A stretch of 33,904 bases of DNA from contig RFJM01000149.1 of the NCBI GenBank assembly GCA_003694905.1, positions 1-33,904 on the forward strand, in the 5' to 3' direction. A program made the translations under genes and the position numbers. This document shows positions 10,015 through 21,152 of the stretch, piece by piece. The stretch comes from Caldilineae bacterium (GTDB lineage Bacteria > Chloroflexota > Anaerolineae > J102). Under the pieces are notes generated by a model. It was not told where the DNA came from. It was given only the letters and a program-made list of their open reading frames with translations, and did no database searches. How positions within the stretch are numbered: the stretch's first letter is position 1; the number at the start of each line of letters is the position of its first letter.

Positions 10015-11010
10015 ATGCGTGCTCAGATCTTGCGCCATCCGGCCCCGATCGAGAACCGGCCCCTACAACCGGCCGATTTGCCCATCCCCACACTTGGTCC
10101 CGGCCAGGTGCGACTACGGGTCAAAGCCTGCGGCGTATGCCACACCGACCTGCACACGGTGGAGGGAGATTTGCCTTTACCCAGATTGCCGGTGGTGCCC
10201 GGTCATCAAGTTGTGGGAGAGGTTGACGCACTGGGCGAGGGGGTGACGGAGTTCGAGCCGGGCCAGCGCCTGGGGGTGGTGTGGCTTTACCGCACCTGCG
10301 GGGAATGCGATTACTGTCGCAGCGGGCGCGAGAACCTGTGCGAGCGGGCCCTGTTCACCGGCTACAGCGTGGACGGCGGTTACGCCGAATACATGGTTGT
10401 CGACGCGGCTTTCGCCTATGCCATCCCCGTCTCGTTGCCCGACGAACAGGTCACGCCTCTGCTGTGTGGAGGCGTGATCGGCTATCGGGCCTTGAAGCTT
10501 TCGGAAGTGAAGCCGGGGCAGGTGTTGGGGCTTTACGGATTCGGCAACTCGGCACATATCACGATTCAGGTAGCTCGGCACTGGAATTGCCGCGTGTTTG
10601 TGTTCACCCGTAGCGCAGGCCACCAGGAGCATGCGCGAGAGTTGGGTGCAGCCTGGGTAGGCGGGCCGGCCGATACGCCGCCGGAAGGACTGGATGCGGC
10701 CATCATTTTCGCGCCGGCCGGTGAACTCGTGCCAACCGCCCTGCGGGTGCTGAAGCCCGGCGGCACCATCGCGCTGGCAGGCATACATATGTCGTCCATT
10801 CCCGAGATGCCCTACAGCCTGCTCTATCGCGAGCGCACGGTGCGTAGCGTGGCCAACAGCACCCGCCAAGATGCTCGTGAGCTGTTGGAGCTGGCAGCGG
10901 AGATTCCGATTCGTACCGACGTCACCGTTTTTCCCCTGGAGCAGGCCAACGAGGTGTTGCTGGCCATGAAAGAGAGCCGCTTCAAAGGGGACGCCGTGCT
11001 GGTCCCCTGA
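10015..11010 (+). CDS. Zinc-dependent alcohol dehydrogenase (MDR superfamily)
   Basis: The start was moved to the ATG at 10015, preceded by GGAGG. Catalytic-zinc motif CGVCHTDLH...PGHQVVGEV, structural-zinc motif CGECDYCRSGRENLC, Rossmann GLYGFGNSAH. Confidence 0.9.
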   Translation: MRAQILRHPAPIENRPLQPADLPIPTLGPGQVRLRVKACGVCHTDLHTVEGDLPLPRLPVVPGHQVVGEVDALGEGVTEFEPGQRLGVVWLYRTCGECDYCRSGRENLCERALFTGYSVDGGYAEYMVVDAAFAYAIPVSLPDEQVTPLLCGGVIGYRALKLSEVKPGQVLGLYGFGNSAHITIQVARHWNCRVFVFTRSAGHQEHARELGAAWVGGPADTPPEGLDAAIIFAPAGELVPTALRVLKPGGTIALAGIHMSSIPEMPYSLLYRERTVRSVANSTRQDARELLELAAEIPIRTDVTVFPLEQANEVLLAMKESRFKGDAVLVP

Positions 11011-11084
11011 GGGGCAAGACACGAGAGGGCCTGCCCCCTTGGGCTCGCCAGGCGGGACCGCCTGCCCGCGGCCTGTTGCCGCCG

Positions 11085-11200
11085 CCGGTCAGTACCGGTC
11101 GCTCCGGTTGGCGACGGCCACGCGACCCCTCTCCCTCGCGGGCGTGGTACGTGGGGGCTGATGGTAAGCGGCCCAACAGCCCCCAAGATGAAACGCGCCG
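11085..11200 (+). repeat. Diverged copy D of the intergenic repeat family
   Basis: CCGGTCAGTACCGGTCGCTCCGG...GCGACCCCTCTCCCTCGCGGGCGTGG resembles the CCGGCGTACCGGCTGCCCCCG...GCACCC(T/C)CTCCCGCTCGC segment of copies A and C. CCCCAAGATGAAACGCGCC resembles CCCAAGTTGAAACGCGCAC of copy A. Alignment by eye, low similarity. Confidence 0.3.
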
Positions 11201-11289
11201 ACCAACTCCTCGGGATTTCTCCTCCTCGCGCGGAGACCGTATAATGCAACGGTGTATGCCCGATATCTTCGACGGATTCAAGCTTTTCG

Positions 11290-11493
11290 ATGAACCAACC
11301 TCTCTCTCCAGAAGTACGCGAATTGGCCCAGCAGGCCCGGCAGGTCCACGCCCGCCTGGAGGAACTCTGGGCGGACGAAGGCGTGGACCAGCTGTCCATC
11401 TTCCTCGATCCCGACATTTACTCGGTGCTGAGCGAGATCAAAGAGCTCAGTCTCAACTTCATCCGGCAGGTCGCGGCCCTGGCAGGCGACTGA
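11290..11493 (+). CDS. Small hypothetical protein (67 aa)
   Basis: The ORF has GC-rich third codon positions and sits 26 nt upstream of obg. A TATAAT lies at about 11233-11238. No recognisable motif. An antisense ORF (11278-11517) competes for the same DNA. Confidence 0.45.
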   Translation: MNQPLSPEVRELAQQARQVHARLEELWADEGVDQLSIFLDPDIYSVLSEIKELSLNFIRQVAALAGD

Positions 11494-11519
11494 ACCCGAC
11501 CGGCTAGCGCGCCCCACCC

Positions 11520-12788
11520 ATGTTTGCAGACGAAGTCAAGATCTATGTCAAAGGCGGCGACGGCGGCAACGGCGTCGTCGCCTTTCGCCGCGAGAAGTAC
11601 GTGCCGCGTGGTGGCCCCGCGGGCGGCAACGGCGGCAGGGGTGGAGACGTGTATCTTGTGGCCAGCCCGCAGCACAACACCCTCTACCACTTCACCAAGA
11701 AGGTGCACTTCAAGGCGGGGCGCGGTGGGCACGGTGGGGGCAGCAACAAGCAGGGCGCCAGGGGTGAGGATATCGAAGTGCCTGTTGCCCCCGGCACGGT
11801 GGTGTACGATGCCGAGACCGGCGCTTTTCTGGGCGAACTCCTGGAACCGGGCGAGAGGCTGTTGGTGGCACGCGGAGGGCGCGGCGGCCGGGGCAATGCC
11901 GCCTTTCGCTCCTCCACCAATCAGGCACCGCGCCTGGCCGAAAAGGGGGAGCCGGGCGAGGAACGCTGGCTGCGTCTCGAGCTGAAGCTCATCGCCGACG
12001 TGGGCATCATCGGCGTGCCCAATGCCGGCAAGAGCACACTGCTCTCGGTGGTCACCCGCGCCAGGCCCAAGATCGCCGACTATCCCTTCACCACCCTCGT
12101 CCCTAACCTGGGCGTGGCCGTGGTAGACTATCAGGACATCGTTCTGGCCGATATCCCCGGTCTTATCGAAGGCGCCCACAGCGGAGCGGGTCTGGGGCTC
12201 ACTTTCCTGCGACATATCGAGCGCACACGCCTGCTGGTACACATGCTCAACGGCCTCAGCCCCGACCCCGTGGGCGACTACCACGCCATCAACCAGGAAC
12301 TGGAGCTCTTCAATCCCTATCTGGCGGACAAGGAGCAGATCGTCGTCTTCAACAAGATGGACCTGCCGGAGGTGCGCGAGCGCTGGCCCGAGGTGAAAGA
12401 AGCGCTGGCTGCCCTGGGTGTCGGCGCCCTGCCCGTCAGCGCAGCCACCGGTGAGAACGTGGAGCAGTTGATGCAGCGCGTTGCGGCCCGGCTCCAGGTT
12501 ATACCCCGGCCCCAACGTAGCGAAGCGCCCGTCATCTACACACCGGAAGACGAGAATGCCTTCACCATCGAGCGCAAGCCGGAAGGGTGGATCGTGCGAG
12601 GCAAGCGCATCGAGCGCGCGGTGGCCATGACCAACTGGGATTACTACGAAGCCGTGCTGCGTTTTCAGCGCATCCTGGAAGCCATGGGCATCACCCGTGC
12701 CTTGGAGGAAGCCGGCATTCAGGAAGGAGACACGGTATTCATCGGCGACTACGACCTGACCTGGAGCAACGATTACGTCATCGAGTAG
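11520..12788 (+). CDS. obgE: GTPase Obg/CgtA
   Basis: N-terminal Gly-rich Obg fold [45 protein letters not shown]1 [10 protein letters not shown]3 [10 protein letters not shown]4 NKMD. C-terminal OCT-like domain. Confidence 0.95.
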
Positions 12789-12844
12789 GTAGCGGGTCCG
12801 GCCTCCGGATTCTCCTTCTCTCACCCCAAGCGAGCACAAAAGTC

Positions 12845-13465
12845 ATGCTTCGATACGGCATTCTCGGCGGTACCTTTGACCCTGTACACATGGGGCACTT
12901 GATTCTGGCCGAGACCGCGCGCGACACGTTGCGGCTGGACAAAGTCTACTTTGTTCCCGCGGCCGACCCGCCCCACAAACACGGGCAGGTCATTGCCCGC
13001 GCCGAGGACCGCCTGGCCATGCTCAAGCTCGCTCTGAAAGACAACCCCGGCTTCTACATCTCCCTCATCGATCTGGAGCGCCCCGGCCCCCACTACACTG
13101 CCGATATGGTGGCTCTCATGCGCGAGCGAGTGGAACCGGAGGTGGAGTTGTGGTTCCTGATGGGGCTGGACTCTCTCATCGACTTCCCCAACTGGCACGA
13201 GCCGGAGCGCATCCGCAATCTGGCCAGGCTGGCCGCAGCCACGCGGCCCGGCTACGTGATCGACTGGACACCGCTGGAGAAAGCGTTGCCCGGCATTATT
13301 CACGAGGTGACGCTGCTGCCCATGCCGGGTGTGAGCATCTCGTCCAACAATCTGCGTCGCAAGGTACAGCACGGAAGCAGCATTCGCTATCTCGTCCCCG
13401 AGGCAGTCCGGCAGTACATCCTCGGCCACGATTTGTATCGCGGGGAAGCGACAGCCGGGGAATGA
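12845..13465 (+). CDS. nadD: Nicotinate-nucleotide adenylyltransferase
   Basis: The start was set at the ATG at 12845 (MLRYGILGGTFDPVHMGHL). This is the GGTFDPxHxGH nucleotidyltransferase motif, with ISSNNLR near the C-terminus. The obg-nadD synteny is common. Confidence 0.9.
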   Translation: MLRYGILGGTFDPVHMGHLILAETARDTLRLDKVYFVPAADPPHKHGQVIARAEDRLAMLKLALKDNPGFYISLIDLERPGPHYTADMVALMRERVEPEVELWFLMGLDSLIDFPNWHEPERIRNLARLAAATRPGYVIDWTPLEKALPGIIHEVTLLPMPGVSISSNNLRRKVQHGSSIRYLVPEAVRQYILGHDLYRGEATAGE

Positions 13466-13603
13466 AGAGGAGTGGGTGAGGGTTGGTCTTGGGTTGACGA
13501 AAAGTTGATCCCTTCGGGTAATACAAATCGCGCTCCGTTTCGGGTAGATTGACTGCATACGCTCACAACGCGGGCATTCATATCTTCTCAATTGGAGGCA
13601 GTC

Positions 13604-15007
13604 ATGATCTCGAACACCCGTAGACGCCTGTGGATCCTGTCATTGGTTGCGGTTGGCACCCTTGCCTTTGCCCAGACCGCGTTCGCCGCGCAGGACCCCG
13701 ATCCTGTGGACCTGGCGACCAATATCGACGTCATCTGGGTCTTGGTGGCGGCGTTCCTGGTCTTCTTCATGCAGGCCGGTTTTGCCATGGTAGAAAGCGG
13801 TTTCAGCCGGGCCAAGAACGCAGCCAACCTGTTAATGAAAAATCTCATGGACTTTGCCGTCGGCTCCCTGCTCTTCTTTGCCGTCGGCTTCGCTCTCATG
13901 TTCGGAACCGACACCCTGGGTTTGATCGGGCGGGACGGTTTTTTCCTGAGCACGGTGGGTTTTGGGCCCGATAGCAGCATGCAGTGGGCCTTCTTCCTCT
14001 TCCAGCTTATGTTTGCCGCGGCTGCGGCTACCATTGTCTCGGGTGCAGTGGCCGAACGCCTGAAATTTTCCGCCTACCTGGTCTACAGCGTGGTGATATC
14101 CGCGTTTGTGTATCCCGTTTCCGGCCACTGGGTGTGGGGAGGCGGCTGGCTATCGCAACTGGGCTTCATCGACTTCGCCGGTTCTACGGTGGTGCACAGT
14201 GTTGGCGGCTGGGCCGGGCTGGCAGGTGCGATTGTGCTGGGGCCCCGCATCGGCAAGTTCAACAAGGATGGCAGCAGCAACGTGATTCCGGGCCACAGCC
14301 TGACTCTGGCCGCCCTGGGCGTGTTTATCCTCTGGTTCGGTTGGTTTGGCTTCAACCCCGGCAGCACCGTCAGCGGACAGAACCCCGGTATCAGCTACAT
14401 CGCCGTCACCACGAATCTGGCCGCGGCGGCGGCCGCGGTCTCCGCTCTGCTCATCAACTGGTTCAAGACCGGACGCCCCTCCACCGAAATGGCCCTGAAC
14501 GGTGCCCTGGGCGGGCTGGTGGCCATCACCGCGGGCACGGCCAGCGTCACCCCCACAGGCGCGCTGCTCATCGGGCTGATTGCCGGTGGGGTGTTGGTCT
14601 TCGCGCTGGACTTCGTCGAGCGGGTGCTCAAAGTGGATGATCCCGTGGGCGCGGTGGCGGTCCACGGCTTCAACGGCGTGTGGGGAACCCTGGCCGTGGG
14701 CCTGTTTGCTTCGCCCGCGGCGGGCCAGCTCACGGCCATGGGCGATGTGGCCGGGCTCTTCTATGGCGGTGGGTTTGCCCAGTTGGGCGTGCAGGCCCTG
14801 GGTACGGGTGTCATCGGCCTCTGGGCTTTCGGTCTCGCTTTTCTCCTCTTCAAGGTCTGTGATCTCACCTTCGGCATCCGCATCAGTCCGCAAGAAGAGC
14901 TGGAGGGTCTGGACATCTCCGAGCACGGTACCACCAGCTACCCCGAGTTCGGCTCTACGGTCAGCGCCAAACCCGCTACGCGTCTCGCTCCCAACACCAC
15001 CATCTAG
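13604..15007 (+). CDS. amt: Ammonium transporter (Amt family) with signal peptide
   Basis: The ATG at 13604 lies 5 nt after GGAGG. Amt signatures are DVIWVLVAAFLVFFMQAGFAMVESG, DFAGSTVVHSVGGWAGLAGA and AVHGFNGVWGTLAVGLF. About 11 TM helices. Confidence 0.93.
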   Translation: MISNTRRRLWILSLVAVGTLAFAQTAFAAQDPDPVDLATNIDVIWVLVAAFLVFFMQAGFAMVESGFSRAKNAANLLMKNLMDFAVGSLLFFAVGFALMFGTDTLGLIGRDGFFLSTVGFGPDSSMQWAFFLFQLMFAAAAATIVSGAVAERLKFSAYLVYSVVISAFVYPVSGHWVWGGGWLSQLGFIDFAGSTVVHSVGGWAGLAGAIVLGPRIGKFNKDGSSNVIPGHSLTLAALGVFILWFGWFGFNPGSTVSGQNPGISYIAVTTNLAAAAAAVSALLINWFKTGRPSTEMALNGALGGLVAITAGTASVTPTGALLIGLIAGGVLVFALDFVERVLKVDDPVGAVAVHGFNGVWGTLAVGLFASPAAGQLTAMGDVAGLFYGGGFAQLGVQALGTGVIGLWAFGLAFLLFKVCDLTFGIRISPQEELEGLDISEHGTTSYPEFGSTVSAKPATRLAPNTTI

Positions 15008-15033
15008 GCGGCAGCGGCAGAGCGAGACGCCAC

Positions 15034-15062
15034 GTGGTCCGCGCCCCCTTTTCACGGACCAC
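15034..15062 (+). other. Intergenic hairpin between amt and the unknown gene
   Basis: GTGGTCCG (15034-15041) pairs perfectly with CGGACCAC (15055-15062), with a 13-nt loop. No convincing T-tract follows, so it is not called a terminator. Confidence 0.3.
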
Positions 15063-15090
15063 ACCTTCACTTCTGCCCGAAGGAGACGCC

Positions 15091-16071
15091 ATGAAACTTT
15101 CCCTTTTTCTCAACGCCGAAGAGGAACAGGCCACCATTCCCTACATCCTCGCCGTTTCCCTGGTCGATGAGGTCATTCTTCCCCACAACCGCTTCCTGGT
15201 ACCGGTCTATCGAGAATCCGATTCGGACAATGCCTCTCTGCTGGCCATCGAGATCTGCGGCATGCGCCTGGAAGCCAGGGAAGCCGAAGCCCTCCTGCCC
15301 CCTGCGGCGCGGTTGCTGGACGGTCTGATCAACATGGCCCGGCTGCCTACCTATGTCTTCATCGCCGCTCCCTCCAGGCAGATCTTCCCGGTCTACACCG
15401 TCGGCGATGAAGTCTTCGCCACGACGCCGGGCGGCCCGGTATTCCGCCATGTTGAGCTGGCGAATGTACGGCAGTATCTCGGCGACTACCTCCACGGTGT
15501 GGCCGTGCTGGGCAGCGGCCAGCGGGAGGAGAAACTGCACGTGCGCGGCGTCGATACCAATACCCTGGGTCTGATCCGGCCCTCTTTCTACCTGAAGAAA
15601 CGCGTGCCCGGCGAGGATGAATTCTGGGCACCGGTGTTTCTCTCTCTCGACGGCCGCGAGTTCTATACCTACGCAGCCAGCGCCCGCCGTGCAGCCCCGG
15701 TCGACAACGGCCACGGCGTCCTCGCCTTGCACGAGCTCGTAGCCCAGGCCCTTATCGACGACGGCCGCCTGCATGATCCCCTCGATTTGCGTCCCGACCG
15801 CCTCTTCCCGGACATGGCCGGCCGGGTACTGGAGGAACTCGTGCCCCAACCCTATCGCCTAACGTTCCGCACCCTGCCCGAGCAGGCACTCGAAACGCTG
15901 GCCGTATACAAGAACGGCAAGATGTACGCGACGCTGGAACATCGCCGTAGCGAAGACCGCTACAATCTCTACTTCGGCGCGGACCCCGCCGACCTGCGCG
16001 AGCGCATGGCTTTCGACCTGGTGCGCCGCGGCAAAATCTCCGACCCCGCGGCCGTCGAACTCGTCGTCTGA
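15091..16071 (+). CDS. Hypothetical cytoplasmic protein (326 aa), no recognisable domain
   Basis: The ATG at 15091 is preceded by AAGGAG. Coding-like codon bias, no TM segments or known motifs. It sits between amt and glnA. Confidence 0.7.
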   Translation: MKLSLFLNAEEEQATIPYILAVSLVDEVILPHNRFLVPVYRESDSDNASLLAIEICGMRLEAREAEALLPPAARLLDGLINMARLPTYVFIAAPSRQIFPVYTVGDEVFATTPGGPVFRHVELANVRQYLGDYLHGVAVLGSGQREEKLHVRGVDTNTLGLIRPSFYLKKRVPGEDEFWAPVFLSLDGREFYTYAASARRAAPVDNGHGVLALHELVAQALIDDGRLHDPLDLRPDRLFPDMAGRVLEELVPQPYRLTFRTLPEQALETLAVYKNGKMYATLEHRRSEDRYNLYFGADPADLRERMAFDLVRRGKISDPAAVELVV

Positions 16072-16127
16072 GCGCTGTCCTGTGGGGCTCACAAGACCCG
16101 TTCTGCCGAGAGACGTGGTCGCAGCGG

Positions 16128-16161
16128 GGGTGAATATGATCCATTTGGGTCATATTCACCC
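16128..16161. promoter_or_regulatory. 34-bp near-perfect palindrome upstream of glnA (operator candidate, or terminator of the preceding gene)
   Basis: GGGTGAATATGA (16128-16139) and TCATATTCACCC (16150-16161) are perfect complements. Extending inward gives 15 of 16 matching positions per arm. It is AT-rich in a GC-rich context and lies about 105 nt upstream of the glnA ATG. TTCTCTTTC follows it. Confidence 0.5.
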
Positions 16162-16266
16162 TTCTCTTTCGGCGGTAGACTACGAATAGTTTACCCAAAC
16201 GGGTACCATCCGTCTCTATCCCTTATCCTATCCCAGGTAATTCTCTGCAAAAGGAGTCACCCAGAA

Positions 16267-17670
<1,404 letters not shown>

Positions 17671-17865: not shown

Positions 17866-20094
17866 ATGAACGCAACTCCTGCTCTTTCTCTGGAAGATGT
17901 CCTGCGGCGTCTCAACCGCATCGGTGCCGCCATCAATGCGCTGGGCGACGAAGCGACCGTCGAGACCACCCTGCGTCTAATCGTGGAAAACGCCACCGAG
18001 GTGGTGCCGGGCTCTTCCGCGGTCATCTACACCTACGATGGTGAACGCGGGGCTTTCGATGCATCCTCGCGCGTGGCCGTCGGCGAACTGGCAACGCCTA
18101 TGCCCGGCGATGAGCCGCGAGCCGAAGGTATGGGCATGCGCGCCATCCGCCAGAAGCGGCGCATCCTTTCTTACGAAGATACCGACATCTCGTTGCACCA
18201 GGTCAAGTCGCAGCAGGGCGCGCGGGTGGTGGCCTGCTATCCTCTCATCGTCTCCGAGCAGCCGGTGGGTGTGCTCTACGTCTATCTGCCCACCCAACGG
18301 CCCTTCACCCCCACCGAACTGCTCATGCTGGACAACTTCGTCAACCTGGCAGCCATGGCCATCAACCAGGCCCGTCAGATGAACGAGGTGCGTCGCTATC
18401 TGGAACGCAAGGAAGAGGAGCTGAAAAGACTGAGACAGGCAGACTTCCTGATCTCATCACGCCTGGGTTTACAGGAAACCCTGGAAGCGATTCTGCAAAT
18501 GGCGTTAGAGGTCACGGGGGCACGCTACGGCATTCTGCGGCTGAAGGAACGCAACGCCGATGTACTGGTCACGCGAGCCATCGCCGGCGATGACCTGGGC
18601 CGGCCCGCGGTCGAAGCCCTGCCTATCAACACCACCAGCATCACCGGCTGGGTGGCGAAGTATCGCCAGCCGCTCTGCATTGCCGATGTCCACAGCGGCC
18701 CCTGGGCTCGCATCTACTATCCGCTCGACCACGAGATGGAAATGCGTTCCGAGCTGGCCGTGCCTTTGTTGGGCGCAGGTGGTCGCCTGGAAGGTGTCAT
18801 CAATCTCGAGAGTCCCGAGATTGGGGCCTTTAGCGAGGACGACAGCCTGCTCCTGCAATCGCTCGCCACTCAGGCGGTTATCGCCCTGCAGGAGATCCGG
18901 CTTCTGGATGCACTGCTCGAACTCTCCGAACGGCTGCTCACGGCTTCGGACCAGGAATTCTTCGACCATCTGGTGACCCTGACCTGCGACCTGCTCAACG
19001 CGCCGGTCTCGGCTCTCTGGACGGTGGAAGGGGAGGAACTGATCTTGCGCAGCAGCAATGGCGGCTTTCGCCGCGGCCAGCGCATCCCCCTGCATGCCAG
19101 TCTGACAGGGGAAGCTGTGTTGCAACGCCGCCTGGTCACCGCCGAGGACCTGCGTTCGGATCCGCGTTTCCGGCACGGGGAGCTTGCCCGTACCCAGGGC
19201 TGGACCCAGGCCCTCATCGCTCCCCTGGCAGCAGATGAGACCAGCACACCTGTGGGTGCCCTCAGCGTCTACAACACTACCAATGACGACTCGGCCTTTG
19301 CCGCCACCGATTGGGACAAGAAAGTGCTCACGGCGTTGGCCCACCATGCCGCGCTGGCCGTGCAGAATGCCCGGCGCAAAGAGGCTCTGCTGCAGGCGCA
19401 GGAACAACAGGCTGCAGCCGAAACCTTCGCGGCCATGGGCGATATCGCTGCCAATCTGCTGCACCGGCTTAACAACAAGATCGGAACCATCCCCGTGCGG
19501 GTGGAAGGTATCCAGGACAAGAGCGCAGCGGTGCTGGCTGCCGACCCCTATCTGGCCCGGAATCTGGCCGAAATCGAGCGCAGCGCCGTGGAAGCCATGG
19601 AAACCCTGCGCGACAGCCTCTCCTATCTGCGTCCTTTTCATCTTGCCCCGGTAGATGTCGCTGCCGTAGTCCGGCAGGCGCTGGATACCCTGGATGTACC
19701 GCAGGGGATCCGTATCGAGACGGACAACCTGGTGGATCTGCCCCCGGTTACGGCCGGACGCGAACGCCTGGTACTGGTGTTCGTCAATCTGCTGGAGAAT
19801 GCCATCACAGCCATGCAGGGAGAGGGCACCATCACCATCCGGGCCGAGCCACTCGGGCATCGGCTGGAGATCCGCGTCTCGGACACGGGGCCAGGCATCC
19901 CGCCCGAACTACAAGACCGCATTTTCGATTTCAACTATTCGGGCGCCAAGCGTGCGTCGGGCAAGCTGGGCTTTGGTCTGTGGTGGGTTCGCACCATCAT
20001 GGCCCGGTTCGGTGGCGGGATTTCGGTGCAAAGCGATGGCCGGCACGGGACGACATTCATCCTCACCTTGCCTCTGAGCCAGACGGAGCCATGA
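17866..20094 (+). CDS. Cytoplasmic sensor histidine kinase with three GAF-like domains
   Basis: No TM segments. There are three successive modules of about 150-170 aa with GAF-like patterns (for example [25 protein letters not shown]...[21 protein letters not shown]). The dimerisation/His region is [13 protein letters not shown]. ATPase motifs are [19 protein letters not shown] and [10 protein letters not shown]. Confidence 0.9.
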
Positions 20095-21152
20095 CGATGC
20101 AACGCCGCCCCCGCGCTCTCGTGGTCGAAGATGACAGGTCCTGGCAACAGATCCTGGCCGAATTGCTGGGCGACGCCGGACTGACGGTAGACTTGGCCGA
20201 CACCTACGAAACCGCACTGACGGCAATCAAGGCTGCGCCGCACCGCGTGGCGGTCGTTGACCTGTCGTTGAGCGGCCGCAATCCCCACAATCAGGACGGC
20301 CTGCTGGTACTGGAAGCTATTGGGCGACACGATCCCGGCTGTATCCCCGTGCTGCTCACCGGTTTCGCTACGGTCGAGATTGCGGTTCGCGCCTTGCGGG
20401 AACTGAACGCCTACACCTGCCTGCGCAAAGAGCTCTTTCGTCGCGCCCAATTCCGCGAGCTCATCCGAGAAATCCTGGCCGAACCTTTGCTTGAGAAGGA
20501 GGACGCTGCCGCTGCCCTACCGAGTACGGCGAAAGCCGAAACGTCTGCCGCCGGTCCGGCCACAGAAGGCGCGCATGTGTTGGTGGTGGAAGACGATGCC
20601 GGCTGGGCCGGTATTCTGACGGAATTGCTGAGCGACGAAGGACATCGGACGACGGTAGCCCGTAGCTACGGCGAGGCATTGGGACATCTGCAACGGCAGC
20701 CCTACGATTTACTGGTGGTCGATCTGTCGCTGGCCAGTTCGCTGGCACCCGGCGACAACAGCGACGGTATGCGTCTACTCGCCTTCGGCCGCGATGCGGG
20801 AATCCCGACATTGGTGGTCAGTGGCATGGCCACACCTGACGATACCGAACGGGTCTACCGGGAGTTCGAAGCTTTTGCCTTTCTGGAAAAACAGGCCTTC
20901 GACCGCGGTACTTTCCGCCAGGTGGTGCGGGCAGCCCTGGCCTCCCGGCCCGCAGCCGGGGCGCTGGCACTGCTGACCGACCGCGAACGGCAGGTGCTCG
21001 ACTGTCTTGTGCGGGGTATGAGCAACAAGGAAATTGCTCGGGAACTGGTCATCTCCCCCAATACGGTCAAACGTCATCTCAAGGCTATTTACACCAAGCT
21101 GGAAGTCAACTCTCGTGCCGCGGCCGTGGCAAAGGCGATGGAGGCGCAGTAA
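20091..21152 (+). CDS. Response regulator with two tandem receiver domains and a LuxR/GerE-type HTH
   Basis: The start ATG at 20091 overlaps the kinase stop (ATGA). REC1 has ALVVEDD...VAVVDLSL...VLLTG...LRK. REC2 has VLVVEDD...LLVVDLSL...LVVSG...LEK. The C-terminus [45 protein letters not shown] is a GerE HTH. Confidence 0.9.

Follow-up and report, generated by a model that had tools for sequence, protein, structure and literature searches.

What is the role of a 326-amino acid (aa) protein encoded between an ammonium transporter gene (amt) and a glutamine synthetase (GS) gene (glnA)? The question is raised by contig RFJM01000149.1 of a Caldilineae bacterium (phylum Chloroflexota; assembly GCA_003694905.1), of which the whole analyzed stretch of 33,904 nucleotides (nt) is hereafter called the window. 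The protein (hereafter X) is encoded at 15091..16071 on the forward strand. With moderate confidence, and from comparative analysis of genes and genomes, we suggest that X is a genuine protein of the cytoplasm, conserved in Chloroflexota and without enzymatic activity, and the dedicated partner of one Amt paralog, on which it would dock and thereby couple ammonium uptake to assimilation. The X family displays hallmarks of a physical partner: adjacency to amt kept across deep divergence, natural fusions to Amt, membrane anchors, and an Amt tail that co-varies with X.

Association of X with Amt

Gene neighborhoods were surveyed at 83 loci encoding X, four of which are cut off by contig ends, leaving 79 informative for the upstream gene. 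In 72 of these 79, amt lies directly upstream of X on the same strand, across a spacer with a median of 93 nt and a range of 12–354 nt (2 nt in locus L098). The gene directly downstream of X encodes a glutamine synthetase in at least 49 of 77 loci (48 by Pfam scan, plus L001), 32 of these enzymes being type III (GSIII_N) and 17 type I. The occurrence of two non-orthologous GS classes in one slot is a strong functional signal. Linkage to amt and GS, the position from which the original prediction had started, is strongly conserved among X homologs.

Fusion proteins bring Amt and X closer still. The truncated protein P0182 consists of the last Amt helices and tail, then a linker, then an X domain. 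A metagenome scan queried with P0182 alone recovered longer contigs, and L089, L090, L091 and L092 each carry one continuous open reading frame (ORF) of 746–831 aa that spans Amt and X. The Amt domain is complete in L089, L090 and L092 (Pfam positions 1–399 of 399, E about 1e-124). In L089 a linker rich in Pro, Ala and Thr connects it to an X-like domain (probability 97.6% and E 4.7e-12 over 241 columns in hhalign with the family alignment), and tblastn places the Amt and X parts next to each other in L089–L093. Because the contigs are 78–99% identical to P0182 and come from several metagenome projects, the fusion is not an assembly error. An 858-aa frame in genome G038 was also considered as an Amt fusion and rejected, being a GC-rich run-on upstream of the real start that leaves a normal Amt C-terminus. 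The C-terminus of Amt is cytoplasmic, according to the established topology of AmtB, and in the fusion X must therefore lie on the cytoplasmic side, each Amt subunit having an X of its own.

The same location is indicated by family members with a membrane anchor. P0164, P0168 and P0178 begin with a transmembrane helix, after which come basic residues and a linker; under the positive-inside rule, such a charge pattern puts X in the cytoplasm at the membrane.

A further association is found at the C-terminus of Amt itself. X-linked Amts end in “...EELEGLD-ISEHGTxSYPEFG” plus 10–25 further residues, and the Amt of the window, which ends in ...SEHGTTSYPEFGSTVSAKPATRLAPNTTI, fits this pattern as H-G-x-x-S-Y-P-E-F-G plus a short tail. 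The tail motif YPE[FY] is present in 63 of 66 X-linked Amts, vs. none of 15 control Amts, which were taken from X-negative Chloroflexota and from the second Amt paralog of X-positive Herpetosiphon genomes (“...HGEVAYRMG”). The GlnK-linked Amt copies of L019, L072 and L087 are likewise without a YPE[FY] tail.

The locus and the X family

The genes and other elements of the cluster, with their positions in the window, are as follows.

13604..15007, + strand: amt, ammonium transporter (PF00909, E 4.7e-134) with a signal-peptide-like N-terminus
Within 13604..15007, + strand: C-terminal cytoplasmic tail of Amt, “...EELEGLDISEHGTTSYPEFGSTVSAKPATRLAPNTTI”
14980..15062, + strand: structured amt–X spacer with two hairpins (RNA fold)
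15091..16071, + strand: X, 326 aa, predicted cytoplasmic protein of a new family, with four beta-meander-plus-helix modules
16128..16161, strand not applicable: 34-bp palindrome in the X–glnA spacer, candidate operator or terminator/antiterminator
16267..17670, + strand: glnA, type I glutamine synthetase (PF03951 and PF00120, E 7e-132)
17866..20094, + strand: histidine kinase with three GAF domains (Pfam GAF/GAF_2 in three stretches, and HATPase_c)
20094..21152, + strand: response regulator with two receivers and a LuxR/GerE DNA-binding domain (Pfam Response_reg in two stretches, and GerE)

The position of the X ORF between amt and glnA, 83 nt past amt, was confirmed by ORF calling and by the Pfam assignments of its neighbors, as was the statement that the cluster is followed by a GAF-rich two-component system, here a three-GAF histidine kinase and a two-receiver LuxR/GerE regulator. 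The stop codon of the kinase overlaps the start of the regulator (about 20092–20096), and 195 nt separate X from glnA. Translation of amt starts at ATG 13604, preceded by a GGAGG Shine-Dalgarno sequence. The frame of X is open from 15034 to 16071 (+), and the ATG at 15091 gives the 326-aa protein. A Shine-Dalgarno sequence (AAGGAGA) lies 4 nt before this ATG, and in the family alignment all X homologs start with an equivalent M-K/N-h-x-L, which makes 15091 the real start. Upstream of the cluster, housekeeping genes were recognized by eye from the translations: one for an Obg-type GTPase (11520–12788) and, with its end at 13465, one resembling nicotinate-nucleotide adenylyltransferase genes.

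Searched by word index, 5.8 billion proteins yielded 295 X homologs at E ≤ 1e-3, which are ~320 aa long and 45–62% identical; the best matches of the window's X reach E 1e-124. None bears a name other than “hypothetical,” and wherever a source is named it belongs to Chloroflexota (Caldilineales, Anaerolineae, “Chloroflexi bacterium”). HMMER, run exhaustively against 1.84 billion cluster representatives, found only 69 clusters, including remote subfamilies at 25–31% identity. In a scan of one genome per GTDB species, 80 X loci were detected, all in Chloroflexota; the carriers include the cultured Herpetosiphon aurantiacus DSM 785 and metagenome-assembled genomes assigned to Caldilinea aerophila. 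In an even sample of 301 Chloroflexota genomes the family is present in six, and X is therefore a small, lineage-restricted family. The protein of the window conforms to the family definition: ~320 aa, four modules, a P-[VI]-[YF] motif and invariant G57, P86 and P181. One member, P0129 (416 aa), is extended at its C-terminus by ~90 aa, in which a motif like a helix-hairpin-helix (LIEGIGPKIANLLAEKDILTFATLA) is seen.

Sequence and predicted structure of X

The original prediction had seen no recognizable motif in X, and searches of family and sequence libraries agree: Pfam-A 2025 gives no family at E ≤ 1, NCBIfam 20.0 none at E ≤ 10, and the X-family profile has no significant match to PDB sequences (best E 1.5). 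An AlphaFold model was obtained from an alignment of 102 sequences, including the ~25%-identical subfamily, with a predicted local distance difference test (pLDDT) score of 94.4, a predicted template modeling (pTM) score of 0.88 and no segment below 50. It supersedes an earlier model from 25 sequences (pLDDT 83, pTM 0.63). Given this model and the 295 homologs, X is more than a chance ORF.

The model has ~20 strands and 5–6 helices, arranged as four beta-meander-plus-helix modules with bounds at about residues 1–84, 85–146, 147–226 and 227–326, in whose strands the motif “P-[VI]-[YF]” recurs. By hhalign, module 1 is related to module 3 (E 3e-4; “FxVPVY” pairs with “FWAPVF”), and the remaining module pairs align in register but without significance. 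Foldseek matched neither model to a solved structure in the PDB at E < 1e-3. For the better model the best PDB match has E 4e-3, with TM-scores ≤0.19 and root mean square deviations (rmsd) >15 Å, and no neighbor was found in BFVD (best E 0.024). The Foldseek comparison with PDB and BFVD thus detected no enzymatic fold.

Across the X superfamily, only G57, P86 and P181 are invariant, with P38, Y51, L79, Y88, P100, Y102, L159 and L213 nearly so. Arg, Lys, Cys and His positions that are invariant in the core subfamily are not kept in the remote subfamilies. The conserved positions are all structural (Gly, Pro, aromatic, Leu), which speaks against an enzyme and argues for a putative binding or scaffold protein, one whose surface would co-evolve with its partners. 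No description of the family was found in the literature searched. Against these libraries, structures and papers X counts as a new protein family and a new kind of putative Amt partner, its function being read from comparative data.

X and PII proteins

The gene glnK is known to be paired with amtB (PMC3831643). X sits where glnK usually follows amt; could it, in Chloroflexota without PII, be a functional replacement of GlnK, a sensor of nitrogen status by which Amt is plugged or gated on an ammonium upshift? We consider this unlikely, even though several observations are in its favor. That the window contains no PII ORF had been noted from the start, and a search with PF00543 found no PII in the window, nor anywhere else in the 81%-complete assembly (572 contigs, 3.78 Mb), while detecting PII in 13 of 14 control genomes. 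GlnE was not found in the window's genome either. Among 50 X-bearing genomes 43 are without canonical PII: seven have a canonical match (at least 85 bits), 18 have weak PII-like matches (22–34 bits) and 25 have none. In L019 and L072, where PII is encoded, its gene lies beside a second, different copy of amt.

The weak PF00543 matches are ORFs of mostly ~125–180 aa, with a few of ~300 aa (e.g., G335:C105:9560-9859 and G324:C5:87919-88215), and may belong to a divergent PII-like family distinct from GlnB/GlnK. In L003 the gene directly after glnA (10745–14551), with no PII nearby, encodes a protein of 1268 aa that has ACT domains and, in duplicate, nucleotidyltransferase regions of GlnE/GlnD type.

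Several findings stand against replacement, the first being that glnK and X can be immediate neighbors. This is the case in three loci of a distant subfamily, with the gene orders amt-glnK-X-glnA (L087), amt-glnK-X-flotillin-glnA with overlapping genes (L121), and glnK-X-flotillin-glnA on a contig that starts in glnK (L122). Because the two genes adjoin, the functions of X and GlnK are best seen as complementary, not redundant, and X as an additional component, the window's lineage having the same cluster minus glnK. Secondly, the lack of PII is common in the phylum regardless of X. In the sample of 301 genomes, 214 encode Amt and ~75 a canonical PII; about two thirds of Amt-bearing genomes are without canonical PII, so Amt without PII is the norm in Chloroflexota, X or no X. 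A strict anticorrelation between X and PII was accordingly rejected, as PII is so often lacking and glnK and X share operons. Thirdly, X has no sequence or fold relation to PII: PF00543 detects the true PII proteins of L087, L121 and L122 but nothing in X, and the ferredoxin-like beta-alpha-beta-beta-alpha-beta fold of PII is unmatched by the X model, no PII chain being present among the 50 listed Foldseek hits. Finally, no ligand-binding residues are conserved across the X superfamily. The role of PII stand-in that the original prediction had implied is not upheld by the genomes in which glnK adjoins X, nor by an absence of PII that is not special to X carriers.

Downstream genes: glutamine synthetase, two-component system and flotillin

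The window's order of five genes, amt-X-glnA-GAF kinase-LuxR regulator, is found again in L005 and L013. It also recurs far from the window, in Anaerolineaceae subfamily B, where X is ~25% identical to that of the window: L098 has amt-X-glnA, and L099 and L100 have amt-X-glnA-GAF kinase-response regulator/GerE, equivalent to the five-gene cluster of the window. The kinase and regulator genes occupy 17866–21152 in the window, 8834–12171 in L099 and 8830–12240 in L100. Since the kinase/LuxR pair is kept at ~25% X identity, the five-gene cluster is ancient, and it may represent a PII-independent nitrogen two-component system.

With GS so often the next gene, whether type I or type III, X might act mainly on GS as an inhibitor, activator or assembly factor, and be near amt merely through a shared nitrogen-regulated operon. 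The stop codon of X overlaps the start of glnA in L001, and X stays with glnA in Caldilinea loci where amt is absent (L029, L031, L037). Yet the fusion to Amt and the membrane anchoring are hard to explain in this way, and the Amt tail co-varies with X. X also stays with amt where no GS is near, as in Herpetosiphon aurantiacus (L080), L057, L058, L060 and the fusion contigs. Beyond the catalytic domain, moreover, little surface is common to type I and type III GS. We rate a primary role on GS as quite improbable.

A flotillin (Band_7) gene directly follows X in seven loci from several subfamilies (L010, L012, L085, L088, L121, L122 and L123). In addition to the glnK-containing clusters described above, these comprise amt-X-flotillin-glnA (L123, L010, L012 and L088) and NhaP-amt-(membrane-anchored X)-flotillin (L085). 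NfeD proteins are operon partners of SPFH/flotillin genes, and X could by analogy of position be a flotillin-associated adaptor that recruits Amt into flotillin microdomains, nitrogen regulation being secondary. Like many NfeD proteins, some X have an N-terminal membrane helix and a beta-rich soluble domain. Most loci, the window included, have no adjacent flotillin, Pfam scans of X and P0164 find no NfeD domain (PF01957), and X is linked to amt and GS far more often than to flotillin; we therefore think this very unlikely. In L088 (2541–3456; G007:C13) the X-like gene between amt and flotillin is split into two overlapping ORFs of 164 and 148 aa, representing either a frameshift/pseudogene or an assembly error.

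That X is a nitrogen-metabolism enzyme of undescribed fold, as its place in a metabolic gene cluster and the core subfamily, with many Arg, Lys, Cys and His positions that never vary (CGF, TTPGGPVFRH, LHVRG, YLKKR), might suggest, is highly improbable given that those residues are not kept in remote subfamilies with unchanged gene context, the repeat-module architecture, and the lack of any enzyme-fold match for the model in PDB or BFVD. Each of these four alternatives fits fewer observations than does X as a partner of Amt.

Four loci (L036, L040, L047 and L051) have tandem X paralogs in the order amt-X1-X2-glnA, and X2 of L036 (6998–7966) matches the X family alignment with an hhalign E of 4e-62. 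Such tandem copies suggest hetero-oligomers or a division of labor.

RNA and DNA elements in the spacers

The amt–X region (14972–15095) folds as RNA with −46.2 kcal/mol (z = −3.9 vs. shuffles), and the first of its two hairpins spans the amt stop codon with 10-bp perfect arms (GCGTCTCGCT/AGCGAGACGC). In the X–glnA spacer, the core of the palindrome, ATATGAyCCAttTGGGTa, is kept in L005 and L013, the closest relatives that share the five-gene cluster, and each of these has a second copy of the core ~45 nt downstream. No second copy was found within the window, and as an exact pattern the palindrome is absent from the other loci searched. The surrounding region (16100–16185) forms a very stable extended hairpin as RNA (z = −6.3), followed by a U-rich stretch, UUCUCUUUC. 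The palindrome at 16128–16161 could serve as a terminator/antiterminator or as an operator to which, for instance, the LuxR-type regulator encoded downstream binds. Between 13300 and 18000 no sigma-70-like promoter was detected.

Genes for response-regulator/ANTAR (RNA-binding antiterminator) proteins flank the cluster in L003 (5455–6060), L029 (5141–5749) and L031 (2570–3172), which suggests antitermination control of amt, X and glnA in those lineages.

A proposed role for X

How might a protein of this kind work with Amt? We propose that every Amt subunit binds a single X at its cytoplasmic face, probably by way of the lineage-specific C-terminal “SYPEFG” tail. As an adaptor or regulator, the docked protein would tie the entry of ammonium to its assimilation by the glutamine synthetase of the adjacent gene; in some lineages GlnK and a membrane scaffold of flotillin may take part. 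The outcome could be gating, activation or channeling. That X binds Amt, where it does so, whether it touches GS or flotillin, and how it affects transport or assimilation are inferred from the patterns of linkage, fusion and co-variation set out above. Of the two parts of the original prediction, that of a nitrogen-related accessory factor of Amt or GS has become the best-supported reading, in view of conserved linkage, Amt-X fusions, co-variation of the Amt tail and the recurrence of the kinase/LuxR pair in distant relatives; the implied replacement of PII is the part that finds no support in the form given.

Several observations weigh against X as an Amt partner. Only six of the 301 sampled genomes carry X, which would so be dispensable for most Amt-bearing relatives. 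In the Caldilinea loci named above X lies beside glnA without amt, and the fusion is confined to one narrow clade of ~70% GC. Three control Amts have looser relatives of the tail (AYPNF, AYPDL), so the YPE[FY] tail is characteristic, not exclusive, of X-linked Amts. Genes that are co-transcribed need not interact, and X and glnA may even be separate transcription units, because the 195-nt spacer between them holds a strong palindrome.

The likely history, and the most economical one for the various gene orders, starts with an ancestral cluster amt-glnK-X-flotillin-glnA; in the lineage of the window glnK and flotillin would then have been lost, with amt-X-glnA and the GAF kinase/LuxR pair kept. 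As a more speculative and rather doubtful extension, X might be the first of a structurally new class of proteins that dock on transporters. With flotillin as a partner, and GlnK present or not, it would form a membrane-bound Amt-X-flotillin-GS complex that hands ammonia directly to GS, and in lineages without PII, X and the GAF kinase/LuxR regulator would constitute a complete PII-independent nitrogen-control module.

The Amt–GlnK pair has been the paradigm of prokaryotic ammonium-uptake control for more than 20 years, and no other dedicated, genomically coupled protein partner of Amt was found in the family libraries or literature searched. If X is such a partner, it would represent a new fold and a new mode of Amt regulation or of metabolic coupling to glutamine synthetase. 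It would also offer an entry into nitrogen control of Chloroflexota, which are abundant in wastewater, soils and sediments and in which most Amt-bearing genomes are without PII, and possibly a first link between bacterial flotillins and nitrogen assimilation. Cultured carriers, Herpetosiphon aurantiacus DSM 785 and Caldilinea aerophila, make direct study of X feasible.

Comparison with known systems

In its architecture X recalls small beta modules of the PH-like, SH3 or Tudor type with a helix cap, the weak top Foldseek matches being Grb2, the PH-PH region of FARP2, the PH-PTB region of IRS-1 and the tandem Tudor domains of 53BP1. All of these matches have E > 1e-3, TM-scores ≤0.22 and rmsd >12 Å, and they are an architecture-style hint, not a fold assignment.

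The likeness to NfeD lies in the seven loci in which X is immediately upstream of flotillin, and in those X proteins that combine an N-terminal membrane helix with a beta-rich domain. X differs from NfeD in having no PF01957 match, in its much larger size and four modules, and in being mostly without a flotillin neighbor.

Amts with fused signaling domains are also known, e.g., Ks-Amt5 of Kuenenia, an Amt-histidine-kinase sensor. The fusions L089–L092 similarly have a C-terminal cytoplasmic domain on a complete Amt, although this domain is not a kinase or known signaling domain, and in most genomes X is a separate protein.

A further parallel is provided by GlnK/GlnB, the classical partners of Amt. 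Like these PII proteins, X is encoded beside amt, would be cytoplasmic, and is expected at the cytoplasmic face of the Amt trimer. It differs from them in length (326 vs. about 112 aa), in showing no homology and another predicted secondary structure, in conserving no ligand-binding residues, and in coexisting with glnK in one and the same cluster.

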